In this document: piece by piece, positions 3,010 through 60,358 of the stretch
Position numbering within the stretch: position 1 is the first letter of the stretch
How the letters are laid out: each line of letters begins with the position of its first letter
NCBI GenBank assembly: GCA_039621445.1
Contig: CP154954.1
Span: forward strand, 21,960,954 to 22,024,953
Length of the DNA: 64,000 nucleotides
Origin: Euglena gracilis
Taxonomy: Eukaryota
Direction: 5' to 3'
Position numbers and translations under genes: made by a program
The notes under the pieces: generated by a model
Databases searched by the model: none
What the model was told of the DNA's origin: nothing
What the model saw: only the letters and a program-made list of their open reading frames with translations

Positions 3010-3014
3010 ATGGT

Positions 3015-3091
3015 CCGAATGGTCTCGGACTCCCACGACAGAGGAAGGGGCAGGAAGGGACCAAGAGGGCGAAGCACAAGAAGATGGTGAG
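3015..3091. repeat. DIRS internal complementary region (ICR)
   Basis: 3015-3025 is the reverse complement of 149-159; 3026-3091 is the reverse complement of ~3332-3397. Confidence 0.85.
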
Positions 3092-4224
3092 CCCAACCCT
3101 TCCACCCAAAACATCAGCAGAAAAAGAAAGACATCCCAACCAGAAAGGGGACCCCCGACCAAGCAGCCATGGGAGAGGGGGGGCGGGGGCGGGGACACGA
3201 CGGTTCAGCTTCGCCAAGGTGTCGGAGGAGGCCTCATCATCGCTAACTCCGGCAACAAAGGCGCAATAAGAAGCACCCCCCGCACACGCACAGACACACC
3301 AGAACAGAACAGCCGGCAAGGAAAGCACGACCTCACCATCTTCTTGTGCTGCGCCCTCTTCGTCCCTTCCTCCCCCTTCCTCTGTCGTGGGAGTCCGAAA
3401 ACCAGTCAGTCACCCTGAAAAAACCAGTCACCTCCGCCCCCCGGGGGGGGGGGGGGTCGGTCAGTGCTTAAGCAACTGCCTGTTCCGGACCACCCCCTCC
3501 TCTCCTTATATTATTTCGTCCAAGGTACCACCCAATTCCACTGAATGGTCCTTCAAACCCTGGCGTAGGATCGTTGAACTCTTTCCCCTGCGGCGGCTTT
3601 TTTCAAGTGCTTCTTCAGTTTTTCTTGGGCACAGCACTGTGAAGCCACTTGAACCAGGAAATCAGGATCCGCCCAGTTCACCATCTGACTAAAGAAAATC
3701 CCTGCCAACGAGGGTTTCCTCAACCTTCTCTTGCATTACTAACTTCTCCACCGAGGAGATTCAACCGCTCGGCCACGTGCTGTGCTCAGGGTTCGCTATC
3801 GCTGGGGGATGTGCTCTCATTCTGGGGTTTTGCCTTTTTTGTGCCCCTGCGCTTCTGGTTATGCCTCACCCAGGGCGGTCCAGACAACCAGTGTTTGCTT
3901 CGCCCGACTTTGGGCTTTGCCAGGCAGGGCCTCCACTAGGCCTTGGCCGGAGGATCCGGGTAGGACCTCTATGTTTGCTTCGCCCGGCTTTGGGCTTGCA
4001 GTCCTCCGGCCTCGGCTTTCGGTTCGACCCGCCGGCACAGCTTAGCTTTGTACAATTTTTTCGAAGTCCTTGACTTTTCCCCCTTGAACTCTTCCCCCTG
4101 GGTTTCTTTTTGTAGTTTGACAACGACAAATCTTGTAAGCAACAAATCAACGATGAGGTAAATTCTGTGAAAGTACTTGTCAGAGCGGTAAAGAAGAACC
4201 TTGTGTGAAGGAAAATTTTGTAGT

Positions 4225-9789: not shown

Positions 9790-12714
9790 TTGGTGGATTT
9801 GTGTCTATGGACCGCTTCACCACCCTATCCACAACTTTTCATGAATCGCAACACCGCATTATGCAGTTGTGCGATGAAACGGAAAAGTTTCGGCAATTCC
9901 AGTCACAAGCCAACAAGAATTTTGCTCCCCACACGTGTGTGCGGCAGCTGGGGGAGCGATTTTCCTGTTTGGAGCTGAAAACGTGCTTTTGTGACGCAAT
10001 TCAGGTTGGATTATCCAATCTGAGCGCGAAAGTCGCGGAAGTAGCACAACGGCAGGATTCCCTGCAGTTGCAGTTACAATCCGACATTGGCGGGATTAAC
10101 TCGGCCATTGCGGGTTTGCAACAAAGCTATTCCGCTCTTTGCCACCGAGTTCCAGACATTAGCGGTATTCAGACTGCTAGTGGAGAACTCCAGACCCGGT
10201 ATGCATCGGTATCTACCAAAGTAACGGAAATGCAGTCTCCACCTGCAGGTTCGAGTTCCCGGATTACCGAGAACCCTGATTTCAAGGCACTTTATGACAA
10301 AATGCTCACTGGCAATCAGGAAACCTTGCAAGATTTCTGCAACAATCTATTACGGCTTGAGGAATCGGTGAATCGGAATGCCCGATCCACGCAAGGTGAG
10401 ATTACCAGGTTGGATGAGCGAATTTCCGCGTTGTTGGATAAGTCACAATCCGGAACTTTGACCGTGGGTACCACAACCGCGTTGTCGGATGACCCTGCAC
10501 CGGTTGCACCCATCACCACACCAACCAATCAACCAATGTGCAAACACCTTTGCAGATTCTCTCAAAAGCTGTAAAAGCATTAACGGGACAAATCCAATTA
10601 TTTAATGAGCCTCACGGGAAACTTGTCCAAGATGTCACCGGAATTTTCGAAAGGATTCCGCATTTGGATGATTTTTCACGTTACCGCAAGCGTATTCGCG
10701 TTTTGGAGGATTAAGTTGACCGTATTTGCGGCCAACTCCAACTCGTTGAGCATTTGGAGCAAAGTGTGCATGACTTGTCTGTCGGTTTTGATAATGTGTC
10801 CAACCAACGGCGGGTTTCACACCGCAATTCGGCAGTGTGCATTGCCGAAGATGCGTCAAATGTTCCACATTCGCTTTTCCACAACCCGCATCTGCGTGCA
10901 CATGCACCACCACCACCCGTGTCCCGATTGTCACATTCCGCTATTCCACGAATTGGGCCACCATTGGCCTTGCCCACAACCAAAACCCAGTTTTCGGATG
11001 ATTTTCCCATTACGGGAACCGAGTTTTCAGAAAACACGGCGATTCTGCCTAGTCTCCACCAAGAAATCCATCATTCCATGCTTGTGCGTGGAATGAGCCA
11101 AACCCGTACACCGGGAGTGGGTCACACGTCGCAAGCGCGGCATACCCCCACACCGGACAGTTCCCCTATTACGGGTGACCAACAGGGTTTGAGATCGGTT
11201 TTCCGGTACCAGGATTCACCGTCACCAGAAATTTTGCGACTACGACAAGAATCCGGAAAGGACGCGCGTGGTGCTCGAGTGTACCCGGGCCCGAATCCAC
11301 GGAATACCACCGAGGGTCAGCGGGCTCCTCACAAAGAGTCCAAGGGCACCATCGTATTCGCGAATAAGGTGCGACGGTGATCCAACCACATGGAGACAGT
11401 ATTTCCGGGACTGGTAATGCTACTGGGCACTGAAAGGGCCAACCCAGAACACAAACCCGGAGGTGATCAAGATGGAATTCATCGAATGCCTCCTAAGGGA
11501 TAAGAAGGAGCGTGCGCGACAACTTGTGATTCGCTACCGCGTTTCCTTTGATGACCTGGTGGAGCAATACGCTTCCACGAGTTCAAGTTTTAGTCGCTAG
11601 ATTTACCCTAGAGACCGCTTGGCGGCAATGCGCCCCGCCCGATCGCAAGTGGAAGTCCATTGACCTTTGGTATGCCAAGTGGTTAGGACTCGCCGCTGAG
11701 GTGGATTCAGTGAAAAGCAAATGCGCGAAGAGTTTGATGCTGTTCTCATGCATTTCACGCCTAGCCTCATCAAGGATATTCACCGTGAGGAGGTGGCGAG
11801 TCATCCAATGACTCTTGACCAACGCTGGAACTACGTTTCCAAGCAATTAAAGCTATCACACCTTCTCGGTAAAATTCAATCAGCGTATAACGTGCACCTA
11901 ACCGCTGGAATACCGGCTGGCTCGGTGAACGCATTGCAAAAATAACTGGTTTCACCCACTTCACCCATCGAAAACGCGATTTCGTGATTTTGTGCAACAA
12001 ATCGGGACATATGTCTCGGGAATGTCCTAATCCTGAAGCGCGAAAGCGCCTTCAGAGTCCGTGGTGCTCGACCTCATCACAGGGTTCAGGTTCTTCCGCA
12101 TTTTCACGCAAATCGGGCAATTCACGGTCATCGGATCCCCGTTCCAGCGGTATTAGCCCCCGGATCCCGTTCCGTGATGAGCGGAAACACGGTACCCCTC
12201 GGGGTAGATCACACGGTGCACCAGCCAAGAAGCGTGATTCTTATCGCAAGACATCGCGATCGCGTTCGCGAAGCGGATCATCCTCTTCGCGATTCTCATC
12301 GGGAAAACCTTGATACACCGGTCATGGTCGACGGGGTACCCGCTCACCACGACGGCTTGACGGGAAACAGGGAAACCGATCCCCCCGTTACCCAGAATCG
12401 CGACACAAATCTCGGTGTTCGCTTTGTGGATCGAATGATCACCACTCATCCAAATGTCTGCGTTCTCGTTCTCCCCACCCTAGCCTACGTCATCGCGGTA
12501 TGAATCGCGGTGACAAGGGTCAATCCTCCAACCGCCATAAAGTCGGTTTCAAGATGTCTTGTTCGGAGGATGACATCCCGGCTTCAGGCAGGGAAGGGGA
12601 TGAGACACGGATACCGATTTCGACGAGTCCTGCATGGCGGTGCACACGTTGAAATCCGTTTATACGTCTAAAAGGCCCATAGCCGGCTATTCGGCCGGTT
12701 CGGACCTGGAGTAG
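9790..12714 (+). pseudogene. Gypsy family A coiled-coil N-extension fused to gag (Zn knuckle, RS-rich), decayed
   Basis: 9801-11100 is homologous to 53880-55200. 11330-12714 is homologous to gag 56870-58331 (KGTIVFANKV, PDRKWKSIDLWY, CNKSGHMSREC, SRSRSRSGSSSSR). Confidence 0.85.
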
Positions 12715-13066
12715 GGGAGCCCGAGGTCCGAGGGCACGGACCTGTGGGCTGATGAACAGATGGAGGTAGGGCCTGATGAACCCTGCCCCCCCTGCCCATC
12801 TGCCTTCCTGGTCGGTACCTGGAAAATGTTTGGGTCCCCCACCCCCCACTCCAACTTTCCGCTCGGAATGTTGTGGAAAGTAGAAAAGGGTTCGTGGGAA
12901 AGCTGGCAAGAAAACGTATTTTCGCCAGACACTTCACGTTTCCTACCCCCCATGGAAATTTTGGTCCAAGTGGAAATCAAAACCGAAAATTGTTGTGCAA
13001 ACGTCAAAATTCTCATTGAGACTGGTTGTCGCATAGCACTACTTTTTCGGTTCGGGTTGATGCCAA
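12715..13066 (+). pseudogene. Family A aspartic protease N-part, first of two duplicated copies
   Basis: KILIETGCRIALLF (D>E at the DTG position), homologous to 58347-58680. Confidence 0.8.
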
Positions 13067-13518
13067 TCTGGCCAAGTATCGGTCACGGGGACAAGGGTTA
13101 AAAGATTCTGTGACGCTCCAACAGAAGCCCCTAGAGATATTCACTAAAAACTCGGATTTCGGACACCGTTGCGAGGGTAAGTAAGTAAGGACTGTAGCAT
13201 GTAAGCATGCGACAGGAAAGTGTCCAAACTCAGACAGGGACGATGTGGGGGGGGATAAAGGTAAAAAGGCAAAAGTCAAGCAGTTGTAAGGGCGGTAGGG
13301 GTGAAAAGGTGGAAGGAAGGACGTGCAGGACTGCCCGGGAAAAAGGACATCTTACACCGGGGAGGGTGCTTTGGGGGACCATAAAAGGTGAAAATCGGAA
13401 GGAAAGGTCAGAAAGTGGACAAGGAGACAACACAAAGGCGTGGGGAAAGAGGTTACTTCCGACGTTCCCCCCCCTTCTTTCTGGCCAAGAAGCCGATCAA
13501 AATTACGACGGCTGACAA

Positions 13519-13722
13519 TGGACGTCTCAGAATATTCTTTTGTTTTTCTTGAAATCCTCGGATTCCCAATTTTCTTGATATCCCAATTGTTCCAAAGACG
13601 TAAACACAAGTCAATGTGACATGAAACCAGAGCCAGCAGTCTGCGAGGGGAAAAGTTCAAATTAGGAATACAAAAGTCAGTTCGGCAGTTGTTAAGGTAA
13701 GCGGTCAGGCAAATAGTCCGCA
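13519..13722 (-). repeat. Family B 3' LTR
   Basis: Direct repeat of 20378-20581 with 5 substitutions counted; TG...CA ends. Confidence 0.92.
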
Positions 13723-14007
13723 CACGCCCCCCATGCCGGAGGACGCGGCACCAAAAGTGCAGGACGAAACGGCATCACACCACAGACAAAACGGCTTTAC
13801 TGCGTTCAAGCGCTGATGAATAGTGTTCCATACGAATTGCCCACAAAAAAGGTTCAGAACGACAAATGTCAACACAAAGGAAGGTAAAAGAGGTTACTTC
13901 CGACGTTCACCGTGGTCCCTTCGCTTCGTGGTTGGCTGGCCATTCAAAGGTAACACAAACCTGGGCGGAACTCCTCGCATCAATGGCAGGTTTGTGACTG
14001 AAAGCCT

Positions 14008-15945
14008 TCAAAGGTTAGACAGCAATCCACCCATGGCGAGGCGGGTTGGTGTCTCCTGACCCGAAAAAGCATCCAAAAGGCCCCCTGGGGGGCTTGACTT
14101 TCCTCCCGCGTGACTGAAAGCATGATCAAAACATTTGGGGGAAGGCCAGGCTGTCTCTTGAGATGCCAACCCCCATTCACATTCTGAAACGTCGCAAAAC
14201 ATTCTGAGCGCCTGGCGTAGGATCGATTGTAAATTGTGATCCACACAATAATTCTTGATAACCTCATTCATTCTGCCTCCTGGTTGCACAAAGGAAGCCA
14301 CAGGCTCCCATGTACTGCTGCTTGCCGGAAAATTCTCCCACCAAACCAAAAATTTACATCCCTCTTGGTACATGTGCTTCAAAATCTTGTAAACATTGTA
14401 AAAACCCAATTGTGATTGTTCTTCTTCTGACATCTGCAGGGGGGGGTCCCCTCCCTGGTCTGGCATGGGGGTGTCACCCTCCACTGGGTCTCCCACAACC
14501 ACATCACCGGTCAAAAGGCCTGGGTCTTCTTCTAAAAGACTTTCTTCATTCAAAGCAATCTCCCACTTTTTGCACAAACCCAAAGAAACATCAATGACCC
14601 CTCCCAAAGATGGACTACTTGCAATTTGCACTGAATTGAACCTCGATTTCAGAACCCGAAAAGGTCCTTGCCAGGGGGGGGAAATCTTGGGCCATGATTT
14701 GTTTGGCCATCTTTTGTTGTGCACCAAAACATAGTCATCTTCTTCAATTTTTGCTGGTACCCTCCCTTTGTTGGCACTCTCAAAATCCTTTTTCCTCAAT
14801 TCTTTCAATCTCTGGGAAGCTCTTTCTTGAATTTCAATTTGATTCAAAAGCCAGGAATCGGTGTCTGGGTTTGTCACCGGTTCTGGGGGTAATTCAAACC
14901 TCCAAGCTGGTCTGCCCAAAAACATTTCATGGGGTGACAACATTGTTGTGGAGGAAATCTGTGAACTCATCAAAAATGTGCAATACGGGATCAGCTGAAC
15001 CCAATTTTTGTCCTTGGAAGACAGACTCAATGCTCGCATATTCTGCAAAAACATTTTATTGACGTTTTCAGCCAAACCGTTTGATCGGGGGTTCCGGGGT
15101 AGAGAAAGCGATAATTTCACGTCAAGAGCCTTAAACGCTGTCTGGTAAAAACCACTGGGCTGTCTGAATCGCACGTCGTTGTCAGACCTCACAACGGATG
15201 GTTTTCCAAAAACAGAAATCCACCGGTCCAAAATAAGCCTCAAAACTCCTTCTCCGGTTACCCTTGTCAGTGTGGGGATGAATTGGCAAAAATGGGACAA
15301 ATTGTCGACCAAAGTCAGCACATAGTCAAAACCATTGTAGGGGTCCATTTGCACAAAATCCAAACGCAAAACTTCATTGCTCACTGTTGGAATCGGTAAA
15401 GAACCCACCTTTCCCCGGTCACTGGGGCGGTTTTGTTTTGAAAGGGTGCAAATTTCACAGGTCATCACAATGGCCTTGCAAATTTCCAACATGTCTTTCT
15501 TGGAAACCTTGGACTGCAAATGGCTCAAAAAGAACAACAAAGTCCTTTCAGCACCAACATGGTTGCTTGCCTTGTGACATTCATCCGAACAAACCTTCAA
15601 CAAATGAGATGGAACAACCAACTTTCCTTCGCAATACATTGCCTTGGCAGATCTGAACCAAAACTCATTGTAAATTGAACAGGGTTTTGAAACCTCCACC
15701 TTTTCCCAAAAATCCTTTAGTTCTGAATTCAAATAATCCTTTTCTGACACTTGCACTCTGTGGGACAAACTGAAAATTTTTTGCAAAAACAGGTCAAGCT
15801 GCACATCCATTTTCTGAAAAGCGTTCCTTGCTTCTTCCTCAAAACGAATTTCAAATTTGTTCTCAAAATCAGCACGAGACAAAAAATCACACAATTCATT
15901 TTTGCAACCTGCCACATGAACGATATCCAGTTTGAACTGGTGCAA
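14008..15945 (-). CDS. Family B integrase (HHCC, DDE, GPF) and chromodomain
   Basis: HKASNH..CEIC, LDFVQM, SDNDVRF, SNGLAENVNK, WQGPFRV, KILKHMY..FLVWWENF..STWEP. Confidence 0.9.
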   Translation of the reverse strand: MHQFKLDIVHVAGCKNELCDFLSRADFENKFEIRFEEEARNAFQKMDVQLDLFLQKIFSLSHRVQVSEKDYLNSELKDFWEKVEVSKPCSIYNEFWFRSAKAMYCEGKLVVPSHLLKVCSDECHKASNHVGAERTLLFFLSHLQSKVSKKDMLEICKAIVMTCEICTLSKQNRPSDRGKVGSLPIPTVSNEVLRLDFVQMDPYNGFDYVLTLVDNLSHFCQFIPTLTRVTGEGVLRLILDRWISVFGKPSVVRSDNDVRFRQPSGFYQTAFKALDVKLSLSLPRNPRSNGLAENVNKMFLQNMRALSLSSKDKNWVQLIPYCTFLMSSQISSTTMLSPHEMFLGRPAWRFELPPEPVTNPDTDSWLLNQIEIQERASQRLKELRKKDFESANKGRVPAKIEEDDYVLVHNKRWPNKSWPKISPPWQGPFRVLKSRFNSVQIASSPSLGGVIDVSLGLCKKWEIALNEESLLEEDPGLLTGDVVVGDPVEGDTPMPDQGGDPPLQMSEEEQSQLGFYNVYKILKHMYQEGCKFLVWWENFPASSSTWEPVASFVQPGGRMNEVIKNYCVDHNLQSILRQALRMFCDVSECEWGLASQETAWPSPKCFDHAFSHAGGKSSPPGGLLDAFSGQETPTRLAMGGLLSNL

Positions 15946-17775
15946 AAAAAATATACATCCTTCTCAGCCTTTTGTTGAGGGCGGGTTCACCCTTCAGGAA
16001 AGAGGTGGCTGCCTCATTGTCTGTCATCCACACAATTGGCAGATTTTGCACAATCCTTGTTTGTGAAGCAATGGTCAGCACGCCACTCAAAATTTCCTTT
16101 TCCCAGGTGGTGTATTGTTTTCTTGCCTCACTCCATTTCCAGTTGTAGTGGCCCAAGGGCACCAACCTCATTTCACTAGGGTAGTTGTTTTTCAGGGTCC
16201 CATCCACCTTCACACCACTTGTTCGAAAATTCTCAGGAATTTGTGTTTGTTGGAGGGTTTGCCACTGAAACAAAGCACAACCACCTCCCAAATCCGAACT
16301 GTCAGTCACCATAACAATCTCTCCTGAACTCCTGGGGGTACCCAAAACATCAAGGGATGATAATTTCCTTTTCAAAGCATTCAAACAACTCTCCTCCTTT
16401 TCAGTCCACCTCCATTTCACATTCTTTTTCAGAAGATCTGTCAGTGGGGCTGAGTCAAAAGTAAAACCTTTCACGTGTCTGCAATAAAAATTCATGGCTC
16501 CCAAAATTCGCCTCAAATCCCTTTGATTCTGCACTCGAAAACTCAGAATTGGTTCAATTTTTCTTTTGTTTGCCTGCCACGTTCCCCATCCCAACGAGAA
16601 GCCCAAGTAGTCAATGGTCTGATTCAGAAAAGAACATTTGCTCAGTTTGATTCTCACTTGGTTCTTTCTGCAAACTTCAAACCACTTTTCCAAAAGATAC
16701 AAATGATCCTCCTCAGAGTTTGCACCAACCCCTGTGTCATCGAAAAAAGAAGCCAGGTGTCCATCTTTCAATATCTCTCTCACCCTCAAATCCGTTTTGC
16801 ATTGGGAGGTTAGGATTTCCATCAACTCCTGAAAAATCCCTGGGGCATTCATCAACCCAAACATCATCCTTTTTGGACGAAACACCTCCCTGAAGGAATG
16901 CAAAATGCAGACACATTTGCTGCTCTTTTAGTGATTGGGATTTGCCAATACCCACTCCCCATGTCCAGGGTACTTTTGAACCGACACTTGGCCAGACTTT
17001 CAATCAAAATTTCCATGTTTGGCAAAAAACCTGCATGTGCTTTGCTTCTGGAATTCAATTTTCCATAATGAATGACCATCCTTCTGGTACGTGACCCTTT
17101 TTTGTCCACCAAAAATGTGGGGCTGCACACCTGGGGGATTTCACCAACTGGGAATTGCTCAATCAACCCTGACTTTAGCAATTCTTCACACTGAAGGTCA
17201 ATTTCTTTTTCATCCTCCTGGGGCATGGGCCAACTCTTTTGCCTCAGGGTTTTGCCTTCCCATTCGGGCTTCAGCTCAATGTCTATCAAAACAGGCAGGG
17301 GGGAAGACTCAGAAATTCTGGGCAATGGTCCAAAAACATCATAAAATTTCTCCAAAAGCTCATACAACCTGGGGTGGTCTCTTAATTTCTCAACTTCTTT
17401 CTCAAATTCTCCACTCAGATTCTCAGTAAACAATTTGCTGCTTTTTTCATCAGCCTTTTTCTGGGCCTCCAAAGTCCAAATCTTTTCATGTAAAACTTGG
17501 GAAATGCTTTTGAGTTCATCCATCTTGATTGTTGCCTTGGGGTTCTTCACAGGTTTTGCAAACTGAACATCTTCCACAGGTTGGGACAGCTGGAAAAACA
17601 TCACCTCCACATCTTTTCTCACCTCCTGAAAAAGACTCAGCTCACTTTCAATGTCCTTTGTCAATTGAGCCAAAAAATTGATGTTTTCATGCTCACTCAT
17701 TGGTTCAAACACCACCACATTGACCAACCATTCTTTCACCTTTTCTTCTGATTCCTTGGGGGGAACATTCTCCAA
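15896..17775 (-). pseudogene. Family B RT and RNase H; frameshift near 16880
   Basis: SPTFLVDKK, RMVIHYGKLN, LDMGSGYWQI, MFGLMNAP, FFDD, TDSSDLG, YTTWEKEIL. Confidence 0.9.
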
Positions 17776-18548
17776 AGGAAAACTTGGACTTTCAAAAACT
17801 TGCTGGTCTGCAGGTGGGTTGGCAGGCTGGAGTGCCTGCTGCTGGGGGGAAAATCAGGAAGATCTGGGAAATAAACTTGAATTTCATCATCCACTGTGGG
17901 GTACTTTCTGATCTCACCTCTCAGTTCATCCAAACTCCAATTTCTTGACACTTTCCTGAGCCAACTGACAATTCTGGGGTCCAAAAGCTCAACATCCACT
18001 TTGAATTGCACTGTGTCCACCACACTCACAAACGTGTTCCACAGGGGGGATGGCAGCACCTTTTTGCACCTGTCACCCACAAACAAGGGAACCCCACTTG
18101 AAATTTTCACCCTGGCCACCGTTACCCTTTCCAGCAGGGGGAACAAGTACTGGTCCACCCAGTCTGGGTGTACCAGGACCATTTTTGTTTCTTCAATGCA
18201 CAACTTTGTCACCACTTTGCTTAGTTGGCTGAAGGGGGGGTTTGCCCACAGAAACTTGGAAGGACCAAGGTCACACAACAATTTTCCCCATGAATACCTG
18301 TAGGCTGAATTCCCTTTCGTCATGTACAAAGACTGTGTGTGGTTCAGGTGTTTTCTAAAAAGATCAGTGCAAATCTGACCCTCAGAAATCTTCAATTCAT
18401 CCAAAGCTTTTGACTTCACTGGCTTGACCAAAGTGTAGCTTTCTGTCTTGAAAATTCTGAAAATTCTTTTGATGGTGTGGTCCCCATCATGGCTCTGAAG
18501 TAAAAACTCTTCACCATCGATGATGATTCTGGGGGGTCTGGTCAGCAA
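17736..18548 (-). CDS. Dam-like (N6-adenine/amino) DNA methyltransferase domain of family B pol
   Basis: ICTDLF...N, NSAYRYSW, FLWANPPFS (NPPF at 18231-18242), MVLVHPDW: the motif order of phage Dam/DIRS MTase domains. Confidence 0.8.
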   Translation of the reverse strand: MLTRPPRIIIDGEEFLLQSHDGDHTIKRIFRIFKTESYTLVKPVKSKALDELKISEGQICTDLFRKHLNHTQSLYMTKGNSAYRYSWGKLLCDLGPSKFLWANPPFSQLSKVVTKLCIEETKMVLVHPDWVDQYLFPLLERVTVARVKISSGVPLFVGDRCKKVLPSPLWNTFVSVVDTVQFKVDVELLDPRIVSWLRKVSRNWSLDELRGEIRKYPTVDDEIQVYFPDLPDFPPSSRHSSLPTHLQTSKFLKVQVFLWRMFPPRNQKKR

Positions 18549-19941
18549 CCCTCCAAAAACTCACTTTCTGTAACGTCAGTCCCCAAAACTGCCTCAAAGG
18601 CATTTGTTTCAACCACCACCGCTTTAAGTTTTAGTGTCTTTCGCCCCAACTCCAAACAAACCTCGCACACCCCTTCGGAAAAGATGTACTCCCCGTTGCC
18701 GATCTGCAGAGGTACCGCAGCACTCCGCTGAATTTTATTCTCAGGAACACATTTCTTAGAAACTGCAGTGATGGTGGCCCCTGTGTCCAAAATGGCTTGA
18801 ATTTCCTTTCCATAAACCTTTACTGGCAAAAGATAAGTTTTACACACCATCTGGAGCAACTGCAAAGCATCAGCTTTTCTCTTTTTGGGGTTCTCACCCT
18901 GGGGGTTAACCTGGTTTTGCACTCCCTGGGGTTGAACCGAAGGGGTCCCTTTGCCTGCCCCCTTCTGGGCTGCTGCCTTCTTTTTCTCAAACTTTTCTTT
19001 TGACCAACATCTGTCTTCATAATACCCTTTTTTGTGACAAAATCGACAGAAAATTGTGGCTCCAAATCGTGGGGCTGGGGTGTCATCAACTTTTCTTTCA
19101 CCCTTGCCTTTGCCTTTTCCTTTGCCTTTTCCTTTTCCACTAGATTTTCCACCTTTTCCAGATTCTGGGACACTTTCACCAACTTTTTCAGATTGATCAG
19201 GGGGTCTTTCAATCAATGGTCTGAGATTTTTTTTAGCAAATTCCTCCCCAACCAATCTTAAGAACTTTTTTCCAAAATTGTTTTTCTCAAATCTGTGAAT
19301 GTCTCAGAATGATGTTTGTAAAATCTGTCTGCCCTGATGTCTGCATACATTCTGGGGTGTAATTTCCTCAGCAAAACCAAAAACTTTTCCTGTTCACTCA
19401 TGGCCTGAGGGCTCAACCTGGCCATCAAACTGTCCAACTCAATGAAAAGTTTTTTGATGTCTTGGGGTTCAGGGTTCTGTGAAAGTGCTGGCAATTTCTC
19501 AATGGCAGATCTCAAAGTCATGTCATTTTCCAGTGTTGGGAACAAGTTTGCAATTTCCAACAGCACTTTTTCAAAATCATCATTCTCATCCATCACTTTT
19601 TCAACCAGTTTTTTCACCTTGGGGGTGCAACATTCCAACAGCGAATCCTTTTTCTGGACATTTCTAAATGCAACAGCACCAGTTAACCTCAACCATCTGC
19701 CAAAATCTTTCAAAAACTCTGGCCAATTTGCACCATCAAACTCTGGCAATTTCACAGGGGGTAATCTTGAACTTTGGGTTGAACTTTGGCTGGGGTTGCT
19801 GGAATTTGGTTCAACAATTTGCTTCAGAAATGTTTCAACCTGGGTGATGGGGTTCACAGGGGTAAACACAGACTGACTGCTGCTGGCTGATTTGATTTCC
19901 AATTCTTGCAACCTTCTTTCCAAATCTTCAATGGAGGACAT
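18542..19941 (-). pseudogene. Family B gag (capsid, Zn knuckle) and aspartic protease; frameshift near 19257
   Basis: KLPEFDGANWPEF; CRFCHKKGYYEDRC (CCHC knuckle with H>Y); ILDTGATIT...AVLGTD. Confidence 0.85.
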
Positions 19942-20361
19942 TTCTGCAGATCACTTTCAAAAAACTCAACCACTTGCTCTGAAAACTGGGAGAAACACTG
20001 GCCAACCCAAAAAGACAAACAAAACTAAAGAAACCAGAACAGAAAACCAACCACTTGGTTCAGGACCAGGTCAGCAAGATTATGAAGATCTTGCCTCCAC
20101 CAGGATCTTGTCTGGACAGCAAGGAGAACTGCAGCACTTACAAGCTTCCTCAACCAAGTAACCAATACAACAACTGTTGACAAACTCTCCACTGTGAACT
20201 TGTTCATCACAGCCTCAATGTCAACTTCCTGTTGAAGATGTTGTTCTGTACCAGCATCTCGGTTAACCTTGCCTTCAGGAAGTCCAACTTCTGGAACTTC
20301 AACAACCAGTGAAACAATGTTGAATCTACTCGAAGACGTCTTGGACGACTGGAACAACAAA

Positions 20362-20373
20362 CCTCTGCTACCA
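20362..20373 (-). promoter_or_regulatory. Primer binding site (initiator tRNA-Met type)
   Basis: TGGTAGCAGAGG, complementary to the eukaryotic tRNAiMet 3' end. Confidence 0.85.
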
Positions 20374-20377
20374 ACTT

Positions 20378-20581
20378 TGGACGTCTCAGAATATTCTTTT
20401 GTTTTTCTTGAAATCCTCGGATTCCCAATTTTCTTGATATCCCAATTGTTCCAAAGACGTAAACACAAGTCAATGTGACATGAAACCAGAGCCAGCGGTC
20501 TGCGAGGAGAAAAGTTCAAATTAAGAATACAAAAGGCAGTTCGGCAGTTGGTAAGGTAAGCGGTCAGGCAAATAGTCCGCA
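20378..20581 (-). repeat. Family B 5' LTR
   Basis: Direct repeat of 13519-13722; followed after 4 nt by the PBS. Confidence 0.92.
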
Positions 20582-22740
20582 ATCTCGGTGTTCGCTTTGT
20601 GGATCGAGTGATCACCACTCATCCAAATGTCTGCGTTCTCGTTCTCCCCACCCTAGCCTACGTCATCGCGGTATGAATCGCGGTGACAAGGGTCAATCCT
20701 CCAACCGCCATAAAGTCGGTTTCAAGATGTCTTGTTTGGAGGATGACATCCCGGCTTCAGGCAGGGAGGGGGATGAGACACGGATACCGATTTCAACGAG
20801 TCCTGCACGGCGGTGCACACGTTGAAATCCGTTTATACGTCTAAAAGGCCCATAGCCGGCTATTCGGCCGGTTCGGACCTGGAGTATGGGAGCCCGAGGT
20901 CCGAGGGCACGGACCTGTGTGCTGATGAACAGATGGAGGTAGGGCCTGATCAACCCTGCCCCCCCTGCCCATCTGCCTTCCTGGTCGGTACCTGGAACAT
21001 TTCTTGGGTCCCCCACCCCCCACTCCAACTTTCCGCTCGGAATGTTGTGGAAAGTAGAAAAGGGTTCATGGGAAAGCTGGCAAGAAAACGTATTTTCGCC
21101 AGACACTTCACTTTGCCTACCCCCCACGGAAATTTTGGTCCAAGTGGAAATCAAAATCGAAAATTTTTGTGCAAACGTCAAAATTCTCATTGAGACTGGT
21201 TGTCGCATAGCACTACTTTTTCGGTTCGGGTTGATGCCAACACCCCTTCTTGGTGCAAGCCAAGAAGCCGATCAAAATTACGACGGCTGACAACACCCCC
21301 ATGTGCGGTGGTGACTTGGCATGCTTTTTGGACATAGTCCTGCCCCTCATCACCAAGCACCATTCACCCCCCCCAACCGCAAAATTTTCCGGATACCTGG
21401 GGATATGAATCCGGAATCCATGGTTCTGACGTAATTCTGGGATACCCTTTTTTACGTCAGCACCGGCTGGTAGTGGATTTCCACTCCCACGGTTTGCGCA
21501 CATCACCATTCTCTACATTGCCCCCAAACCCTCATCACATGTGGCGTCAACCGCGACAGCCACCAATTTTTCCACACCGTTTTCAAAAAAATTCACCCCG
21601 TTACCAACCACACCAACCAACGTTTTCCACACCGGGTGTACCGAGAAAGTTCACCCCCTGCCCATTGACACACCAAGTTCCGTTCCCCATCAGGCAAGGC
21701 AAGCGAGTAGCGGTCCCCCCCTCGTTCTATTGGGTTACAAGACGAAAGCCCAAAGGCCTGATGTACGTACGGTGTCGAGTAGTCGCCCAGCTGCACCAAT
21801 ACCCCGTTTTCCACCAGATTAATTTCTTTAAGATACATCTGTACACCCCCCAGCAGCTACAAAAGCGCACCCCAACTTTTACACACACCCCCACCAGACC
21901 AACATACGCGACCAGGACCACTACTCCGACACTTCCCACCAATGTGTGCACTGTAGGAGAATTTCGGCCCAGCCAGATTTCGATTGTGGATATTTAGTCC
22001 AAACACCAACACTAATCCCGGTTTCGCGTAACCATCCACTTGGTTGCGGTTCGCAATGTGCGACCGTACATCAAGTGCTTCAACAACGACGTATTGCCTT
22101 GTTGTTTGGAACCGCGAAATCCGTGTCACACACCTCCCCCACCTCCATCTGGCAGGATATGGACTGGGTATGCACCCATCCAACCCACCAATCCTCGGAA
22201 ATGACCCTTGGGAGTGTGGATGACACACCCTTGGCCTATGTTTGCGGATCCCTGAATTGCGTTACCGCTCTTCAACCCGCGAACCAGGTCGACACCTACA
22301 CAATGCGCGTATGGAATGCATTTAATTTTGGTCAATATCGTATTTTGGAGGAATGGTTCTCAAAATCGCGGTTTTGGCTGATTCCTTCTATTTGTCGTTG
22401 GAAGTTGATGCATTTTCATCAAAAGCACATGTGCGCTGGTCGCGATATTGGTCGCGACATTCCAACGCGTTTCTAAAATTTTGGGGTGATACGGTGCTAT
22501 GGATGCATCCTCCCCCAAAACTTATCCCGGATGTGGTGGAGAAAATCCGCCGCGATGAAGCGCGAGGAGCTCTCCTCATACCCGTCAATCCGAATGCGGA
22601 TTGATTTCACCAACTATCCTCTGTGTGTTTTCGTTGGTGGGGTTTACCCGCTGACGTACCACTGTTCGAGGATTTTTGTGGTATATTATTACCACCCTCT
22701 AAGGAAATCATTTTCCGCGTTTGTTTCTTTGACGCATTCA
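20582..22740 (+). pseudogene. Family A gag end, protease, Cys-rich linker and MTase, decayed second copy
   Basis: 20582-21292 duplicates 12410-13518. Then [54 protein letters not shown]. Confidence 0.88.
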
Positions 22741-23733
22741 GAATATCCGATTTGCGTGTGCCAAGATACCTTGGTACCGATGGGGATATGTTGCAGACGA
22801 GGAATCTCGTGCATGCAACTGTTGTTGCAAATGCAACAACGCGGATGAACAGGACTCCGTTTGTCCCGATAACTGTCGTAGTGAGTCACGCAGGTGCAGA
22901 AACTTGGAGTCATTCCGCGTTTCCACTTCGTGCATGCATTCACTAATTTGCCGGAAGTTTTGCGGGAGGTGTTGGCGCATTTTGTCAAAGGTTTCCTGAA
23001 AGTTTGCAAGGTCAATACCCGCACTTTCGAAATTCCTTCGGCAATATTTGGCAACTTCCTGCAAGTAATTCCAGCTGTATTCCAGCTTGGTGAACACATG
23101 CTTTTGGTTGTCCTCATCAATCTGAAGCACTTTGTTCAGTGCGGTTGCACAATCTGCAACGCATTGTTGCACATGGTTGAACTGCCTCACGAGGGGGTGA
23201 TCCCCTGGAAGCCGAGCAACAATATCCTGCACATCCTCAGCAGTGTGGAGCTCCACCGTGCCCTTCCCATAGCCATCCATGGGTTGGGACGCACCGGAGA
23301 CTTCCGGAACCACTAGGCGAGTCCCCGGCTGCCAAGAAGGTGCGGGATCGCCTCCAAGATTGGGTGGTGGTGGCAAACCTCTGTAAGGGCTTGCCGGTGG
23401 AAGAGCGGGTGGTGGTTGAAAGAAACACGGGGTTTTTAGCCCACCATCACCAGAGAAGTCCGGTGGCGAAATCCCCACGGGTCTCTCCGGTGTGCGCAAC
23501 TGCACCATTGCCGCAGACAGAGGCGAATACCCTTGTTGCGGCAAGGTGAGTGTGGAAGCGGCCGCATCAGCCTCTAAAGCCAGTGATGTGGAGGGCTCAT
23601 CGCCGACCACTGTCAATGATGACAAGAGCTGCAATTTTGACAATTGAACCAATTGTGCCTCATCGGCGTGGGAACTGGAAGCACTTTCACATAAAAGCTT
23701 CCAATCCCCTGTTTCTTGGTCAATGTCTTGCAA
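22738..23733 (-). pseudogene. Family A 5' ORF (N-terminal part of the coiled-coil extension)
   Basis: KTPCFFQPPP, DHPLVRQF..QCVADCATALNKVL, LPQNFRQISE; homologous to 53080-53860; lies just 3' of an LTR and PBS. Confidence 0.8.
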
Positions 23734-24663: not shown

Positions 24664-27600
24664 TGTCGGCTGCCGCTGGCGTCGGCAGCCAAAAATTCGC
24701 ACAAAACTCCCTAAAACCCCCAGTAAGAACCATCAAAGTAAGTTAACCGCCACGCGAGAGGATTTGGAACCACAGCACATTCCAGCAAGAATTTGAGAAC
24801 TCGATTTGAGAATCACAAAAGCAGAAAAGTCAATTGAGAATTGAAGGATCAAAAAGGACAATTCAATTATCCAAAGAAGCCAAGGCATCCCTTTCCACAT
24901 TTTTGTTTCCTTGCCACAACAACTCACCTGAACTCAAAGGTACTCACCTACCCTCGCCAGCAGGTTTGTTGTGCTCTGCTATGTGCTTCCAAGTAGGAGG
25001 GTTGGTTTTTTCTTTGCTCACCTTTTGATCCAAATGTTTGAAAAGGCAAAACAGTGGAGGCTAAAAACGATCCTACGCGGGGAGACAGGGGTACCTGGGT
25101 CGGGGGGGCTCACCCCACCCCCATTACCGCCTGTTGATTTGTTTAAAAGGGGGGCCCAACTTGCCAAAGGCCCTGGCCTGAGCCCACCAGGGCCAGAAAA
25201 AGGCATTTGTGGCCCCAGCTAAATCAGCCCCCAAGGGCGAGGAGGGTCCTCCGTCCCCCCCAACATGGTACGCAGAGGTTGCTTTACTGACTCTGTCAGT
25301 GAAGAATTTTTACTTTCGGTTGATGACAAATCAGAACCCCCCAACATGGTTAGCAGAATCTGTTCCAATCTTGAAGGCGGTTCTTCAACTCTGAATGGTG
25401 AAACGGAAACAGATGAAATTCCTACTATTTTTGAGGATTCTGACAGTGAAAATTTTGAGGAAGGGTTCAACCAGCGTGCCCAGTCATCTTGAGGGACTTC
25501 CTCTGACTGTTTGGCGTCAGAGGATTGAATTAGTAGTTGCACAAATTGACAGAACTGTCCGAGGTTGGTGTTTTGACATTGACACCCGTTTTGAGAAATA
25601 TTACGTGTCCCTGTTTGAGAGAGACAAGGCTCTGACAAAGAAGCTGGTTGACGTGCAATGATTATTAAGTGTGGCAAAAGAAGAAATAGGACGAATGGCG
25701 GAACAAATAAAATTGTTGGAACTGCAAATCGCTGAAAAGCTGCAGCTCAATGAAACAAAGTTGCCAAGTCCAAAACAATTTTGTGTCTGTGATTCAAAAT
25801 TCTGGACATGTCACGAATTTGCAAACATCATCAGTGTCTTCTGAGAAAACTTCCTCAGATTTTGCTGCACAGCCAAGAATATTCAGACAAACGAAAAAAT
25901 TCTGGAGGCCTGCCAAAAACAGCTGGAACGACTTTCAATTTTTGAGACCAAATTGGTTTCAAGATTGGTGGGGTTGGGACTGGCATTTAAATCCCTGGAA
26001 CAGCTGGGGGTGGTTTCCACCGTATCAGTGGTGGTGGTGTTTTTTTTTCAGAACACGTCTGACCACTGACTGGCACAGCACAGCACTTTACAGTGTCGAG
26101 CATGTTTCTGTGGGTTGTTTTGTTATTGTATTTTGATAAGTTTTTCACGGTGCGCTAGCGTTGGAGGCAGATGTGCAATCAGGTCGGAAACAAAATTTGA
26201 ACTTTCAGTATTCACTGTTTGGCTTATGGAAAAACAGCCAAGTCAAACATTTTTTGAATCTGGTTTCTGGGGTGCACGTTTTTTCCCCAGTTGCTTTCCC
26301 CTTAAATGGAGACGCCCAGCCACGATGCTTGGCATTTTTCTCGTAGTGTTCAGGCAGCCAGATCAATGATTTTCAGCTTCAGAGTTTTCAGTATTCGGTT
26401 GTGCCAAATGTCATTGGGGGTGGGGCACGGCATTGACATGTGTCATCATCCCAGACGGGGACAAATCAGACATCTCAGGTTGGATTTTTGTTTGTGTTTT
26501 TGCTGGTCCTTTTTGTCATGGGACAGTTTTTCCAGAGAGAAACTTTTTCCCCGGACAGGGACATATGTTGGAGGATCGGCACAGTTTTTTTGGGATTTTT
26601 CAGTCCACTTTCATTGTGGTTTTCGAGTGTGGCAGCCCAGCTGTGGCAGGTTTTATCTGGGCTTTTGACAAATCCTGACGTGGGGGGGAGACCGCCAAGG
26701 GACACTCGTGACCAAACAGTTTTTGGGAAAGCGCGCAAAGAGGGGTTCCGAGGGTAGGGCCCGACCCAGGCAAGGAATAAACACCCCTGTGGCCACCCAT
26801 CTAAGGGCTCAGGAAACAGTTTTCAATTTACAGTGGGAACCAAGGTGGATTAACCCAGGAGGAAAAGAAACCCCTGAGGAAAATTCATTTTTTGGGCACA
26901 TCAGTGGCATCATCAGTGGCATTCAGTTTCGGTTTTTCAGTGAAAAATCTGCTGATCTGTGGGTTGCACTTTCTGCGGCATTTTTCTGGCTGTGGAGTTT
27001 GCTTGAGGGAAGAAAACTCAGAAGTGGGGGACGCCTCACAATGCAAAACTCCCAAATGCAATTTTTGCAGTTTGAGGCTTGCTTATACAGCTTACGTGTG
27101 ACCCATTTGATGGATCAAGATCAGATTATTAAGTGCCGTTTTTGTGCAGAATTCAGTGGCATTTTAACGTTCGGTTCTGTGAGAAATTTCAGAAATCTGC
27201 CTCAGTGGTGAATTTTGTGCGTGTGTGCATGCTTTGTCATGCAGGTTCAAGCAATCAATCAAACAGACAAGCACCGAAGAGAATCAACGCCAAAGATGTT
27301 GAGAATTTCAAGGCTGATGAGTTTTTCAACAAGTTCAAGTCTGTTGACTGGGACAATGATGATTACATTGACATTGAACTACATTGAGATCAAAAGCAGA
27401 CAAAGCATCAAGGAATTTGATTGAATTTATTGAATTCAAAAGTTGCAACAGTTTGCAAAGAATCGACTACAATGAACATTTGGAAGTCGAGTGGGAGAAC
27501 ATACTTCAATGATATCAATCATCAATGGGATCCAAGCAATTGAATGACATGATTACGATTGTCATGATCACAATTGTGGATTATTTGTGGAGTTGCAGAC

Positions 27601-30600
27601 AATGGTGGATTTTTTTCACTCAAGCACTGGCAGTGGAAGTTTAAGGCTGACCTAACCGAACCGGGGACTTTGGCCCAATGCACGGCCAATGCCCAGGCTC
27701 AATGATTGGTTGGCCACTCCCCATCGTGCCAGGAATGTTTCCTGAATTGTTGGAGTCAGGTCAAGGCTGTGTTGAGCAGTTTTTTTTGTGTTGGTGTGGT
27801 GGATCAAAATCAGTTTCGGCTTTACGGTTGGAGTTTTTTGACTCAGAATTGGATACCTTTGTGAGACGTTTGGGTGGGGACAGGAATGCATCATTTTTTG
27901 TGAACGTGACTGGTTTTGGTCACATCCCAGATTGTGACGGGGTTTGATGTTATATTGATTCGGTTTGGACTATTGGATGTTGGTCAAGTGCATTTTTCCA
28001 TGGAACACAGCTTGGAGGCATCCGAACTCGGGGGGGGGGGACCCTGGACCGGAGATGACCCATCCTCCGTCCAAAGGCCCTGGTGTGGGCCAATGAAATA
28101 AAAAAACCCAGCCACGTGGGTACTAAAGCCCTGTGACATAGTGGCTGAGGTCCAACGAGCAGCTCTGTTCTTTTGGCGTTCAAAAAAAATCCAGACATTT
28201 TCATTTGGGATGGATGACAAGGAAGTGAGCGTGCATAGACACAAAACACACAACCGCACAAGCACACGAACCCGCACACCCATTGTACACTATTCCATAT
28301 AACCGCTAACCCACTCACCTTTTCACGTTTGCTTACCGTTTGCCTGTTTCTCACCCAACTGTTCCTGTTCCAAATTGGAAAGGAATGCCAGGGTTTCTCT
28401 TTTTCTTTGCCCCCAAAATTCATTTTCTGAGGCACTGTTGGCCAAAGTCACTTATTTTTTTTAAAAAAATTGAAATTTAATGAAGTCTCACATACTGAAA
28501 GCTGCCAAAAAAAAGAAAGGATTTTCACCAAGGGGGCAGCTTCGGACTTAGGCCTTGGAGTAGAGTGCAAAGATTTTGTGTCCAAAAACACGTTCCCCAT
28601 GCAACTCGGAGGAAAGGGGTGGGGGGGCTTCCCCCGAGGACCTGATTTTTCAGAGTCCCCCAAGGTGCCCGATATTATGGCTGGGGAGGGGTCAGACTCG
28701 TAATACGAATTTCCAAAAAAAAAAGCGACAGAAACCGTTTAATACAAAAACGCAGAACTTTCGGCCCCCACAAAAGAAATCAATTTCACTCTCCCCGTTT
28801 TTGCCCGGGGGGGTGGGGGGGGGGCAGAAAAACGGTTCCGACTAACGTCGCAAGGGAGGGGGTGTCGGCTGCCGCTGGCGTCGGCAGCCAAAAATTTCCC
28901 CAAAGTTCCCAAAACCCCCAGTAAGAACCATCAAAGTAAGTTAACCGCCACGCGAGAGGATTTGGAACCACAACAAATTCCAGCAAGAATTTAAGAATTC
29001 GATTTGAGAATCACAAAAGCAGAAAAGTCAATTGAGAATTGAAGGATCAAAAAGGACAGTTCAATTATCCAAAGAAGCCAAGGCATCCCTTTCCACATTT
29101 TTGTTTCCTTGCCACAACACCTCAGCTGAACTCAAAGGTACTCACCTACCCTCGCCAGCAGGTTTGTTGTGCTCTGCTATGTGCGTCCAAGTAGGAGGGT
29201 TGGTTTTTTCTTTGCTCACCTTTTGATCCAAATGTTTGAAAAGGCAAAACAGTGGAGGCTAAAAACGACCCTACGCGGGGAGACAGGGGGACCTGGGTCG
29301 GGGGGGCTCACCTCACCCCCATTACCGCCTGTTGATTTGTTTAAAAGGGGGGCCCAACTTGCCAAAGGTCCTGGCCTGAGCCCACCAGGGCCAGAAAAAG
29401 GAATTTGTGGCCCCAGCTAAATCAGCCCCCAAGGGCGAGGAGGGTCCTCCGTCCCCCCCCAACATGGTACGCAGAGGTTGCTTTACTGACTCTGTCAGTG
29501 AATAATTTTTACTTTCGGTTGATGACAAATCAGAACCCCCTAACATGGTTAGCAGAATCTGTTCCAATCTTGAAGGAGGTTCTTCAACTCTGAATGGTGA
29601 AACGGAAACAGATGACATTCCTACTATTTTTGAGGATTCTGACAGTGAAAATGTTGAGGAAGGGTTCAACCAGCGTGCCCAGTCATCTTGAGGGACTTCC
29701 TGTGACTGTTTGGCGTCAGAGGATTGAATTAGTAGTTGCACAAATTGACAAAATTGTCCGACGTTGGTGTTTTGACATTGACACCCGTTTTGAGAAATAT
29801 TACGTGTCCCTGTTTGAGAGGGACAAGGCTCTGACAAAGCAGCTGGTTGACGTGCAATGTTTATTAAGTGTGGCAAAAGAAGAAATAGGACGAATGGCGG
29901 AACAAATAAAATTGTTGGAACTGCAAATCGCTGAAAAGCTGCAGCTCAATGAAACAAAGTTGCCAAATCCAAAAAAAATTTGTGTCTGTGATTCAAAATT
30001 CTGGACATGTCACGAATTTGCAAACATCATCAGTGTCTTCTGAGAAAACTTCCTCAGATTTTGCTCCACAGCCAATAATATTCAGACAAACGAACAAATT
30101 CTGGAGGCCTGCCAAAAACAGCTGGAACGACTTTCAATTTTTGAGACCAAATTGGTTTCAAGATTGGTGGAGTTGGGACTGGCATTTAAATCCCTGGAAC
30201 AGCTGGGGGTGGTTTCCACGGTATCAGTGGTGGTGGTGATTTTTTTTTCAGCACAGGTCTGACCACTGACTGGCACAGCACAGCACTTTACAGTGTCGAG
30301 CATGTTTCTGTGGGTTGTTTTGTTTTTGTATTTTGATAAGTTTTTTACGGTGCGCTAGCGTTGGAGGCAGATGTGCAATCAGGTCGGAAACAAAATCTGG
30401 ACTTTCAGTTTTCAGAGTTTGGCTTATGGAAAAACAGCCAAGTCAAACATTTTTTGAATCTGGTTTCTGGGGTGCACGTTTTTTACCCAGTTGCTTTCCC
30501 CTTAAATGGAGACGCCCAGCCACGATGCTTGGCATTTTTCTCGTAGTGTTCAGGCAGCCAGATCAATGATTTTCAGCTTCAGAGGTTTCAGTATTCGGTT

Positions 30601-52945: not shown

Positions 52946-52949
52946 TGCC

Positions 52950-59318: not shown

Positions 59319-60358
59319 CCGACATGCACTACCAGACCGACACTTCCTTCCAATGCGCACAATGCCGGAGAATTTCCACACAACCTGATTTTGACTGTGG
59401 ATGTATTGTTGAACCTTCCAAACTAATCGCCTTACTCAACAACCAGAGTACACTTGGTACCGAAATCGGTACTGAGTTTACCCGGAACGCTGAACGAGAA
59501 CACAACACACCGGGTTGTTACCCGTTGTGTGTTGAAGTACATCGACAATTGGACAAACGCGGAATCGCGTCCCTGTTTGGAATCGCGAGAACCGCGCTGG
59601 AGGACTTACAAGGGCAGAAAGCCAATCTCTATGACCCCGAATGGCAGAATGCCAATCCCTCCAATACGCCTGCATACAAGTGGCAGAATGCCAATAACAA
59701 TCACACTTTCGACAATACACCTGATGCGTGTGATACACTTGGTACAATGCCTGGTGAAGTGTCTTCGGACACACCGCATTACCGATGTGGCTCGGTAAAC
59801 TGCGTTTCAGCCCTCCACAGGACTGAAACCGCGACAGTTTTCGCGAACCGCATTTGGAATGCGTTCAATTTTGGACAATACCGCATTTTGGAAATTTGGT
59901 TTTCCAAAATCGCGCGAATCGCGAAGTCGATGGACCTACAATTGGAGATTGATGCATTTTCGTCCAAGGCACATTCTCGCTTACCCAATTACTGGTCAAG
60001 CCATACAAATGCGTTTGATAAGTTTTGGGGTGATGTGGTCTTGTGGCTACATCCACCTCTGAAACTTATCCCTCTTGTTGTTGACAAGATCCTTCGGGAT
60101 CAAGCACGCGGTGTGCTGCTCATTCCTATAAATCCCGAAGCGGAATGGTTCCAACAATTGACGTATGTCACTTTTCAGTGGTGGGATTTACCGAATGACA
60201 CGCCATTGTTTGAAGATTTTTGCGGTGTCATGTTACCACCATTGAAAGAAATCATTTTTCGTGTTTGTTTCTTCGATGCATTCGGAACCGTTGACCACAA
60301 TGACAAATTCCTACGGGAAAAAGGTCAGAAAGACCAAACATACCACTATCCGCAGTGA
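59195..60358 (+). CDS. Cys-rich linker and Dam/DIRS-like DNA methyltransferase domain (~59870-60290)
   Basis: [54 protein letters not shown] matches the DIRS/Dam MTase motif series; motif IV is HPPL at 60050-60061. Confidence 0.8.

Follow-up and report, generated by a model that had tools for sequence, protein, structure and literature searches.

A decayed Ty3/Gypsy chromovirus-like element of Euglena gracilis with a Dam-type methyltransferase domain between protease and reverse transcriptase

We have analysed a 64,000-nucleotide stretch of Euglena gracilis contig CP154954.1 (the window). Its minus strand carries, at positions 13519–20581, one decayed copy of a Ty3/Gypsy chromovirus-like LTR retrotransposon, here called element B. 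A domain of about 200 residues between the protease (PR) and the reverse transcriptase (RT) of this element is of methyltransferase (MT) type, and its assignment to the Dam (PF05869) kind is supported by homologues and by its predicted fold. Element B is a DAM-LTR of the chromovirus type, and elements of this kind are already in print. We hold our explanation as a whole, which includes the view that the domain in intact copies most likely methylates adenine N6 in the replication products of the element, at slightly better than even odds.

Structure and state of element B

The features of element B are listed in Table 1, together with those of a second Gypsy family of the window, family A. As in Ty3/Gypsy chromoviruses, element B has PR, RT, RNase H (RH) and integrase (IN), a chromodomain that ends the integrase, and LTRs of the form TG..CA; the two LTRs are 97.5–98% identical. 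The sequence TGGTAGCAGAGG next to the 5′ LTR would be complementary to the 3′ end of an initiator tRNA-Met; a tRNA scan and an Rfam scan of the whole window gave no match. The gag frame has only a faint Pfam match, to Ty3_capsid (E 0.053). In the integrase frame, the matches to rve (E 1e-5), Integrase_H2C2 (E 0.0012) and Chromo (E 1.9e-4) are all under the Pfam cut-offs; the chromodomain match is weak in element B (21.7 bits, cut-off 25.1) and clear in family A (37.8 bits). The ESM Atlas clusters matched by the integrase frame are those of chromovirus integrases, with members from fungi, oomycetes and chordates.

The order gag-PR-MT-RT-RH-IN-chromo was deduced from the Pfam matches and from collinearity with the relative P0156, an uninterrupted frame of 1684 residues on a 9.5-kb contig with the order MT-RT-RH-IN-chromo. 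The Dam-like domain of P0156 is 58% identical to that of the window copy, its residues 353–1111 are collinear with the RT and RNase H of element B, and its residues 1097–1683 are 52% identical to the integrase-chromodomain frame. In three other relatives, P0012, P0017 and P0158, a single frame encodes gag, PR and MT.

Table 1. Features of element B and of family A, with positions in the window
Feature	Position	Strand	Remarks
5′ LTR of element B	20378..20581	−	204 nt, TG...CA; direct repeat of 13519–13722
Primer-binding-site-like TGGTAGCAGAGG	20362..20373	−	4 nt inside from the 5′ LTR
gag frame	19258..19950	−	ATG at 19941; collinear with N-terminal parts of P0012, P0017 and P0158
gag end and aspartic protease (ILDTGAT)	18542..19303	−	PF13975 E 3.8e-10, RVP E 4e-7
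Frame carrying the methyltransferase domain	18560..17736	−	stop-to-stop; between the protease and RT frames
Dam-like (PF05869-type) methyltransferase domain	17886..18479	−	about 200 residues; homologues, model, fold matches
DLF	about 18357–18365	−	in the methyltransferase domain of element B
NPPF (in WANPPFS)	18231–18242	−	in the methyltransferase domain of element B
VLVHPDW	about 18159–18179	−	in the methyltransferase domain of element B
RT (FFDD) and RNase H	15896..17853	−	two frames (17853..16864, 16927..15896); RVT_1 E 6.2e-14, RT_RNaseH_2 E 1.2e-11
Integrase (H2C2 zinc finger, rve core) and C-terminal chromodomain	14008..15963	−	Pfam, alignment to P0156
Chromodomain of element B	about 14284–14400	−	Chromo E 1.9e-4
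Purine-rich tract (GGGGGG core), polypurine-tract-like	13723..13737	−	directly before the 3′ LTR; putative function
3′ LTR of element B	13519..13722	−	204 nt, TG...CA; direct repeat of 20378–20581
Second, broken family A domain copy, LWMHPPP	22326..22946	+	one in-frame stop
Family A copy	56592–63549	+	gag with zinc knuckle, PR, Dam-like domain, 1082-aa RT-RH-IN-SH3-chromo frame
Family A Dam-like domain, LWLHPPL	59807..60355	+	between PR and RT; Pfam Dam E 2.5e-4

Among 148 proteins with the domain, 49 have a protease directly upstream and the other 99 are without a protease match; only 2 of these 99 extend upstream of the domain for 150 residues or more. For the relatives with at least 150 upstream residues or a detected protease, the proportion with the protease directly upstream is 49/51, which indicates that the order PR-MT-RT is the rule in the B family. 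Other orders are observed in distant relatives. The MT domain follows RNase H in P0041, precedes a weak protease match in P0062 and P0099, and occurs together with a weak C5 DNA_methylase match (E 6e-4) in P0146. P0041, P0099 and P0146, the last of which was placed in the tree through the MT profile only, share a clade of 28 rows (SH-aLRT 98) with no upstream protease match in any of its members. P0062 branches apart, near the base of the MT tree.

Compared to its single-frame relatives (P0156, P0012 and P0158), the window copy shows five frame changes and is otherwise collinear. All five breaks are located in or beside homopolymer runs, and there are breaks both before and after the methyltransferase domain. 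Within the domain, an arginine follows DLF where the relatives have alanine (112/128), and a leucine follows Tyr138 where they have tryptophan (111/117). As judged from these letters, the window copy is dead and unable to make the enzyme. The first-pass annotation had described an “NPPF-intact methyltransferase” and had considered element B a better candidate for an active enzyme than family A. The motif is indeed intact, but the frame around it is not and the two substitutions lie in the domain; the preference for B over A holds at the level of the family and not for the copy in the window. The frame breaks, the homopolymer runs and the variants of other copies suggest that the window holds a decayed member of the family or, in part, an assembly with homopolymer errors.

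These variants were obtained by aligning to element B the Logan contigs of four runs (X1 and X3, both DNA, and X15 and X20). At a likeness of at least 90%, 13034 contigs of X1 and 11617 of X3 matched, and such thousands of contigs indicate that family B is very abundant. At 18142 and 18145, in the codons of the conserved tryptophan and its neighbour, almost every contig departs from the window sequence, and at the breaks at 15944, 16879 and 18554 other copies are one letter longer or shorter. Less damaged copies of element B exist. Both length forms are present in the DNA runs, where the window form predominates at 15944 and 18554 and is the rarer one at 16879. In the RNA-type libraries, all covering contigs carry the other length form, except for about a sixth of the X15 depth at 15944; position 16879 is not covered by X20. 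The element is matched by 120 contigs of X15, for which the RNA type is only a guess, and by 49 of X20, a leaf-litter metatranscriptome with cover absent from 5 of 30 element bins; as DNA can be present in both libraries, these contigs do not establish transcription.

No target-site duplication was found for element B, since the 5 nt that border one LTR on the outside are not the same as those that border the other. On either side of the element lies one copy of a direct duplication of ∼710 bp from the gag-PR part of family A (12408–13518 and 20581–21293, 97–100% identical), and the left copy of this duplication holds an extra piece of 417 bp (13067–13483) with a 40-bp match to the 3′ untranslated part of element B. 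Recombination between two B insertions residing in two A copies would explain both the missing target-site duplication and the flanking duplication. The missing duplication points to a later rearrangement of element B and is not an argument against the Ty3/Gypsy class.

The Dam-like domain and its homologue in family A

The frame between protease and RT contains, in this order, ICTDLFRKHLNH, NSAYRYSW, FLWANPPFSQ and MVLVHPDW. The motifs that had been noted at first between the DTG protease and RT (TDLF..N, NSAYRYSW, WANPPFS and VLVHPDW) are all present on the minus strand, and the interval given for them, 18010–18445, covers the core of the domain (17886–18479). The domain has motif IV of the amino-methyltransferases, (N/D)PP(F/Y/W). 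NPPF alone is not beyond chance, as the pattern [ND]PP[FYW] has five matches in the six-frame translation of the window.

A word-indexed search with the B domain identified 11 homologues (E 2.7e-81 to 9e-9, 41–65% identity), several of them with the domain fused to a protease, and WANPPF is invariant in 11/11 aligned rows. Profile searches against 1.84 billion cluster representatives (metagenome proteins) matched 1374 proteins at E≤1e-3, of which 380 reach E≤1e-10 and 111 reach E≤1e-30. Conservation was counted with a domain HMM run against 159 proteins, in clusters of 50% identity, which gave 150 domain hits, 124 of them covering the motif. The motif asparagine is kept in 120 of these 124, with the family A domain of the window itself as one of the four exceptions, and NPP[FWY] is found in 103. 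Conservation of NPPF across the family and the presence of a methyltransferase fold had both been named beforehand as tests of the domain, and both were borne out by these counts and by the model described below. The relatives also share VDLFA (Asp in 116/125, Phe in 123/128 and Ala in 112/128), an invariant lysine (123/123) and a P.W motif (Pro in 119/123 and Trp in 115/121). The family has no conserved glycines that would form a glycine-rich SAM loop, and only VDLFA...N lies ahead of the NPPF strand.

The window copy matches Pfam Dam (PF05869) with an E of 0.0022 (18.1 bits, under the cut-off of 28.1) and the phrog_111 profile “DNA methyltransferase” with an E of 8e-4. Among 74 relatives, PF05869 is matched by 50 at E≤1e-3 (best 5.7e-9) and by 19 at E≤1e-5, and PF12237 (PCIF1_WW) by a single one (E 5.7e-6). 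In the ESM Atlas, the methyltransferase frame falls into eukaryotic clusters at 0.78–0.81, one of which has PF05869 in 14% of its members. Sequence searches of the PDB returned no match, either for the single B protein or for the profile of 74 rows.

An AlphaFold2 model of the domain built from these 74 rows (pLDDT 94.5, pTM 0.90) consists of a reduced five-stranded sheet with flanking helices; it supersedes an earlier model from 11 sequences, which had a pLDDT of 67 and weak fold matches. Ranks 1–13 in a viral fold library are occupied by phage DNA N-6-adenine methyltransferases, with E values as low as 9.9e-8, and the best of these enzymes superpose with an rmsd of 2.5–2.8 Å over 141–149 alignment columns. 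Over the best fold matches, the phage enzymes of PF05869 type have E values of 9.9e-8 to 1e-5, an rmsd of 2.5–3.4 Å and a TM score of up to 0.82 on the phage protein, and they have the NPP-aromatic motif in common with element B. They are free-standing proteins of prokaryotic viruses, whereas the B domain is embedded in a polyprotein, and they are without the conserved N- and C-terminal stretches that the A and B domains share (hhalign, 151 columns). The matches of 50 of the 74 relatives to PF05869, together with the phage enzymes as best fold matches, are the basis of our assignment of the domain to the Dam kind. We give next to no credence to the reading of the spacer between PR and RT as a stretch of chance motifs with no domain, as it is refuted by the homologues, by the 1374 profile matches and by the fold predicted with a pLDDT of 94.5.

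The closest solved structure to the model is PCIF1/CAPAM (6irx; Foldseek E 3.3e-5), with a sequence identity of 14–16% and ∼128 aligned residues of the Rossmann core. The alignment to 6irx is restricted to the core, spanning residues 9–158 of the model. With VIA-align, PCIF1 (Z 8.5, rmsd 3.1, 128 residues) is the sole chain at Z≥8 among the matches listed, followed by KsgA, Erm and DIMT1 (Z 7.0–7.5), T4 Dam (6.3) and EcoDam (6.2). Of the 50 matches listed, all but two, a “putative hemolysin” (3opn) and MtNAS (3fpe), are described as methyltransferases or complexes containing one. Z values in this range count as middling according to the tool, and it is the phage matches that carry weight. PCIF1 has an NPPF catalytic motif. 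Membership of the B domain in the PCIF1/CAPAM family was rejected because the WW and helical domains are absent, so that there is resemblance only.

The structural matches raise the question of whether the domain is an active adenine-N6 methyltransferase that acts on the element's own RNA, at a cap-adjacent or internal site as in PCIF1, rather than on double-stranded DNA. PCIF1 as best solved-structure match, the rRNA adenine methyltransferases KsgA, Erm and DIMT1 behind it, the one relative that matches PCIF1_WW, and the giant-virus PCIF1-like proteins found from rank 14 onward in the viral library would all fit an RNA substrate. These same giant-virus proteins are, however, outranked by the phage DNA enzymes, the helical and WW parts of PCIF1 are absent from element B, and the PDB ranking is biased toward RNA enzymes, since sequence searches of the PDB brought up no member of PF05869. 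We consider action on RNA quite improbable.

Family A of the window carries a homologous domain. It aligns to the B profile with an hhalign probability of 98.3% (E 1.7e-14) over 151 columns with 24% identity, and it is matched by phrog_111 (E 1e-6). A word-based search for homologues of the family A domain found none among proteins of 100–321 residues, which is weak evidence. Both domains are located between PR and RT, as the first-pass annotation had proposed. Its description of the two families as divergent also agrees with our results. Element B is a methyltransferase-bearing Gypsy element with a chromodomain, as shown by the PF05869 relatives, the phage Dam fold matches and the chromodomain match itself, and it is distinct from family A in GC content (0.442 in B vs 0.475 in A), in CpG o/e (0.33 vs 0.99) and in RT, where family A and the B-type relatives are about 25% identical. 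The family A copy at 56592–63549 has long open frames, and the window stops before its 3′ LTR. With a CpG o/e of 0.99, compared to 0.33 in element B, this copy looks young or unmethylated.

The family A domain has a histidine in place of the catalytic asparagine, leucine or proline in place of the aromatic residue, and asparagine in place of one conserved tryptophan. Its two copies in the window differ chiefly at synonymous sites, with a pS of 0.74 and a pN of 0.18 over 126 codons (pN/pS 0.25), so that the domain has been under purifying selection. Since a domain with HPPL or HPPP is thus retained, at least one lineage needs it for something beyond canonical catalysis. The state of family A thus makes a non-catalytic role a serious rival to methylation. 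The domain would then be derived from Dam without methylating any longer, and would serve as a binder of nucleic acid or SAM or as a structural part of the PR-RT linker. Selection on family A without the catalytic asparagine, the aromatic residue and one tryptophan argues for such a role, as does the apparent lack of a glycine-rich SAM loop in the family as a whole. On the other hand, retention of the tetrad among the relatives (asparagine in 120/124 and NPP[FWY] in 103/124) is hard to explain without chemistry at that site, and the annotation given to PF05869 proteins is DNA adenine methyltransferase. A non-catalytic role of the domain is, in our estimate, unlikely, though it deserves to be taken seriously.

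In a quick MT tree, which was midpoint-rooted with no outgroup, a branch of 3.95 changes per column sets family A apart from the 82 B-type rows, all of which it falls outside. Such a tree neither supports nor excludes a single capture of the domain for A and B. The alternative of one clade or repeated capture, posed at the outset from the shared position, is the same choice that the preprint discussed below addresses in its available text (bioRxiv 10.64898/2026.05.21.726589); the tree without an outgroup cannot make it.

Published DAM-LTRs and the proposed function

The available text of a preprint on eukaryotic DAM proteins reports 10,030 of them, mostly borne by transposable elements, and proposes a single origin of DAM in DIRS-like elements with at least four transfers into Ty3/Gypsy elements, termed “DAM-LTRs” (bioRxiv 10.64898/2026.05.21.726589). 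Five lineages are described in that text; some DAM-LTRs are chromovirus-like, some also carry DNMT, and the DAM domains have a conserved Asn-Pro-Pro pocket (bioRxiv 10.64898/2026.05.21.726589). DAM-LTRs are reported there as absent from Metazoa and Streptophyta, and the authors claim the first report of DAM domains in LTR elements other than DIRS (bioRxiv 10.64898/2026.05.21.726589); our literature search found no further paper on DAM domains in non-DIRS LTR elements.

Element B agrees with this description in having RVT_1, PR, rve and direct LTRs, the Asn-Pro-Pro motif and, via its relatives, a domain of the PF05869 type. As far as the preprint text goes, the PF05869-type domain in pol is common to element B and the DAM-LTRs; the Asn-Pro-Pro pocket, the reduced five-strand fold and the chromodomain are common to element B and the DAM-chromovirus-like elements; and the B family and, in some genomes, the DAM-LTRs reach high copy number. 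The relatives with a C5 methylase-like stretch (P0146) recall the EpiLTRs of that text. The PR-DAM-RT order of element B is not given in the available text, where one lineage has DAM between integrase and RT, and a sister family with HPPL/HPPP under purifying selection is not mentioned in it. The preprint screen used hmmsearch at E≤1e-5 (bioRxiv 10.64898/2026.05.21.726589). At this threshold, as stated in the available text, the B copy (E 0.0022), the A copy (E 2.5e-4) and all but 19 of the 74 relatives fail, and the lineage may thus be under-sampled in the preprint.

Methyltransferase domains of DIRS elements in fungi have been detected with PF05869, according to the portion of that study available (PMC3783388), and they belong to the same Pfam family as the B domain. 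DIRS elements are characterized by a tyrosine recombinase and by repeats that are inverted or split; they lack a protease and a DDE integrase, and their MT comes after RNase H. In element B, by contrast, the LTRs are direct, PR, an rve integrase and a chromodomain are present, and MT lies before RT. Identity of element B as a DIRS element is excluded by its PR, rve and direct LTRs and by the absence of a Phage_integrase match. A DIRS-like fragment is present in the window on the plus strand (1031–3415), with an inverted repeat (173–276/3341–3239). It encodes RVT_1 and RNase_H (PF00075), followed by VDMFCTPSNKK and then by truncation of the element. As read from its residues, VDMFCTPSNKK resembles the beginning of the MT domain of DIRS elements; this fragment and the B domain share the N-terminal signature hydrophobic-D-L/M-F-A/C...N. 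Its hhalign match to the B profile (38%, E 3.4e-4, just 39 columns) is too weak to use.

In intact copies of element B, the methyltransferase domain would be made within the Gag-Pol polyprotein and would travel with RT. There it would most probably methylate adenine N6, with SAM as the donor, in cDNA or RNA:DNA hybrids of the element itself, and new insertions would carry 6mA, which the host might read as permissive chromatin. The preprint authors likewise propose 6mA deposition on replication intermediates (bioRxiv 10.64898/2026.05.21.726589). According to their available text, 6mA is enriched on DAM-LTR insertions of Euglena and of two ichthyosporeans, DAM-LTR insertions in ichthyosporeans are also enriched for expression, and DIRS and DAM-LTR domains expressed in dam- E. 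coli produced no gain of 6mA (bioRxiv 10.64898/2026.05.21.726589). The 6mA enrichment on DNA speaks against RNA as the substrate. The E. coli result would fit action on RNA and also counts in favour of a domain that no longer methylates.

We hold the catalytic step on a DNA-containing substrate only tentatively, at slightly under even odds, and the chromatin consequence of 6mA marking is less likely than this step. Our caution on catalysis is due to the reduced five-stranded core, the apparent lack of a glycine-rich SAM loop, the negative assays in dam- E. coli and the state of family A; that on a DNA substrate is due to the closest solved structures, which act on RNA. With PCIF1 as nearest structure and negative assays on double-stranded DNA, the question of the substrate becomes a concrete one between DNA, hybrid and RNA. 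One further, rather improbable, combination is that families A and B represent an additional DAM-chromovirus lineage that has been poorly sampled and keeps the PR-DAM-RT order throughout, present as many thousands of fragments in a multi-gigabase host and mostly below the threshold of the published screen, in which the B enzyme would act like PCIF1 on RNA or on an RNA:DNA intermediate and the A domain would be a pseudo-enzyme under selection.

If adenine N6 methylation by element B is correct, retrotransposons with their own adenine methyltransferase could write a host mark of active chromatin on themselves, and such self-marking by 6mA would be the opposite of the usual account, that of silencing. 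The two families also offer a natural comparison within one genome, since family B keeps NPPF across hundreds of diverged relatives and family A has lost the motif and conserves the domain. Such a comparison could show whether selection maintains catalysis. The practical value is modest, as elements of this kind are already published and the copy in the window is dead.

Sequence context in the window

Pfam was scanned with 64 of the 105 long open frames of the window, among them 34 in a large block of tandem and dispersed repeats at 24664–56138, and these 34 gave no match. Within the block, repeat units of ∼4.2 kb at 24664–34717 are 94–98% identical, and copies that are 80–86% identical to these units are located at 37372–41760 and 48631–52950. 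The dinucleotide TpA is strongly depleted, with an o/e of 0.41 in the window and 0.23 in element B, at a GC content of only 44–48%. This depletion accounts for the many long open frames found on all six frames, 105 of which are at least 130 residues long in the window.
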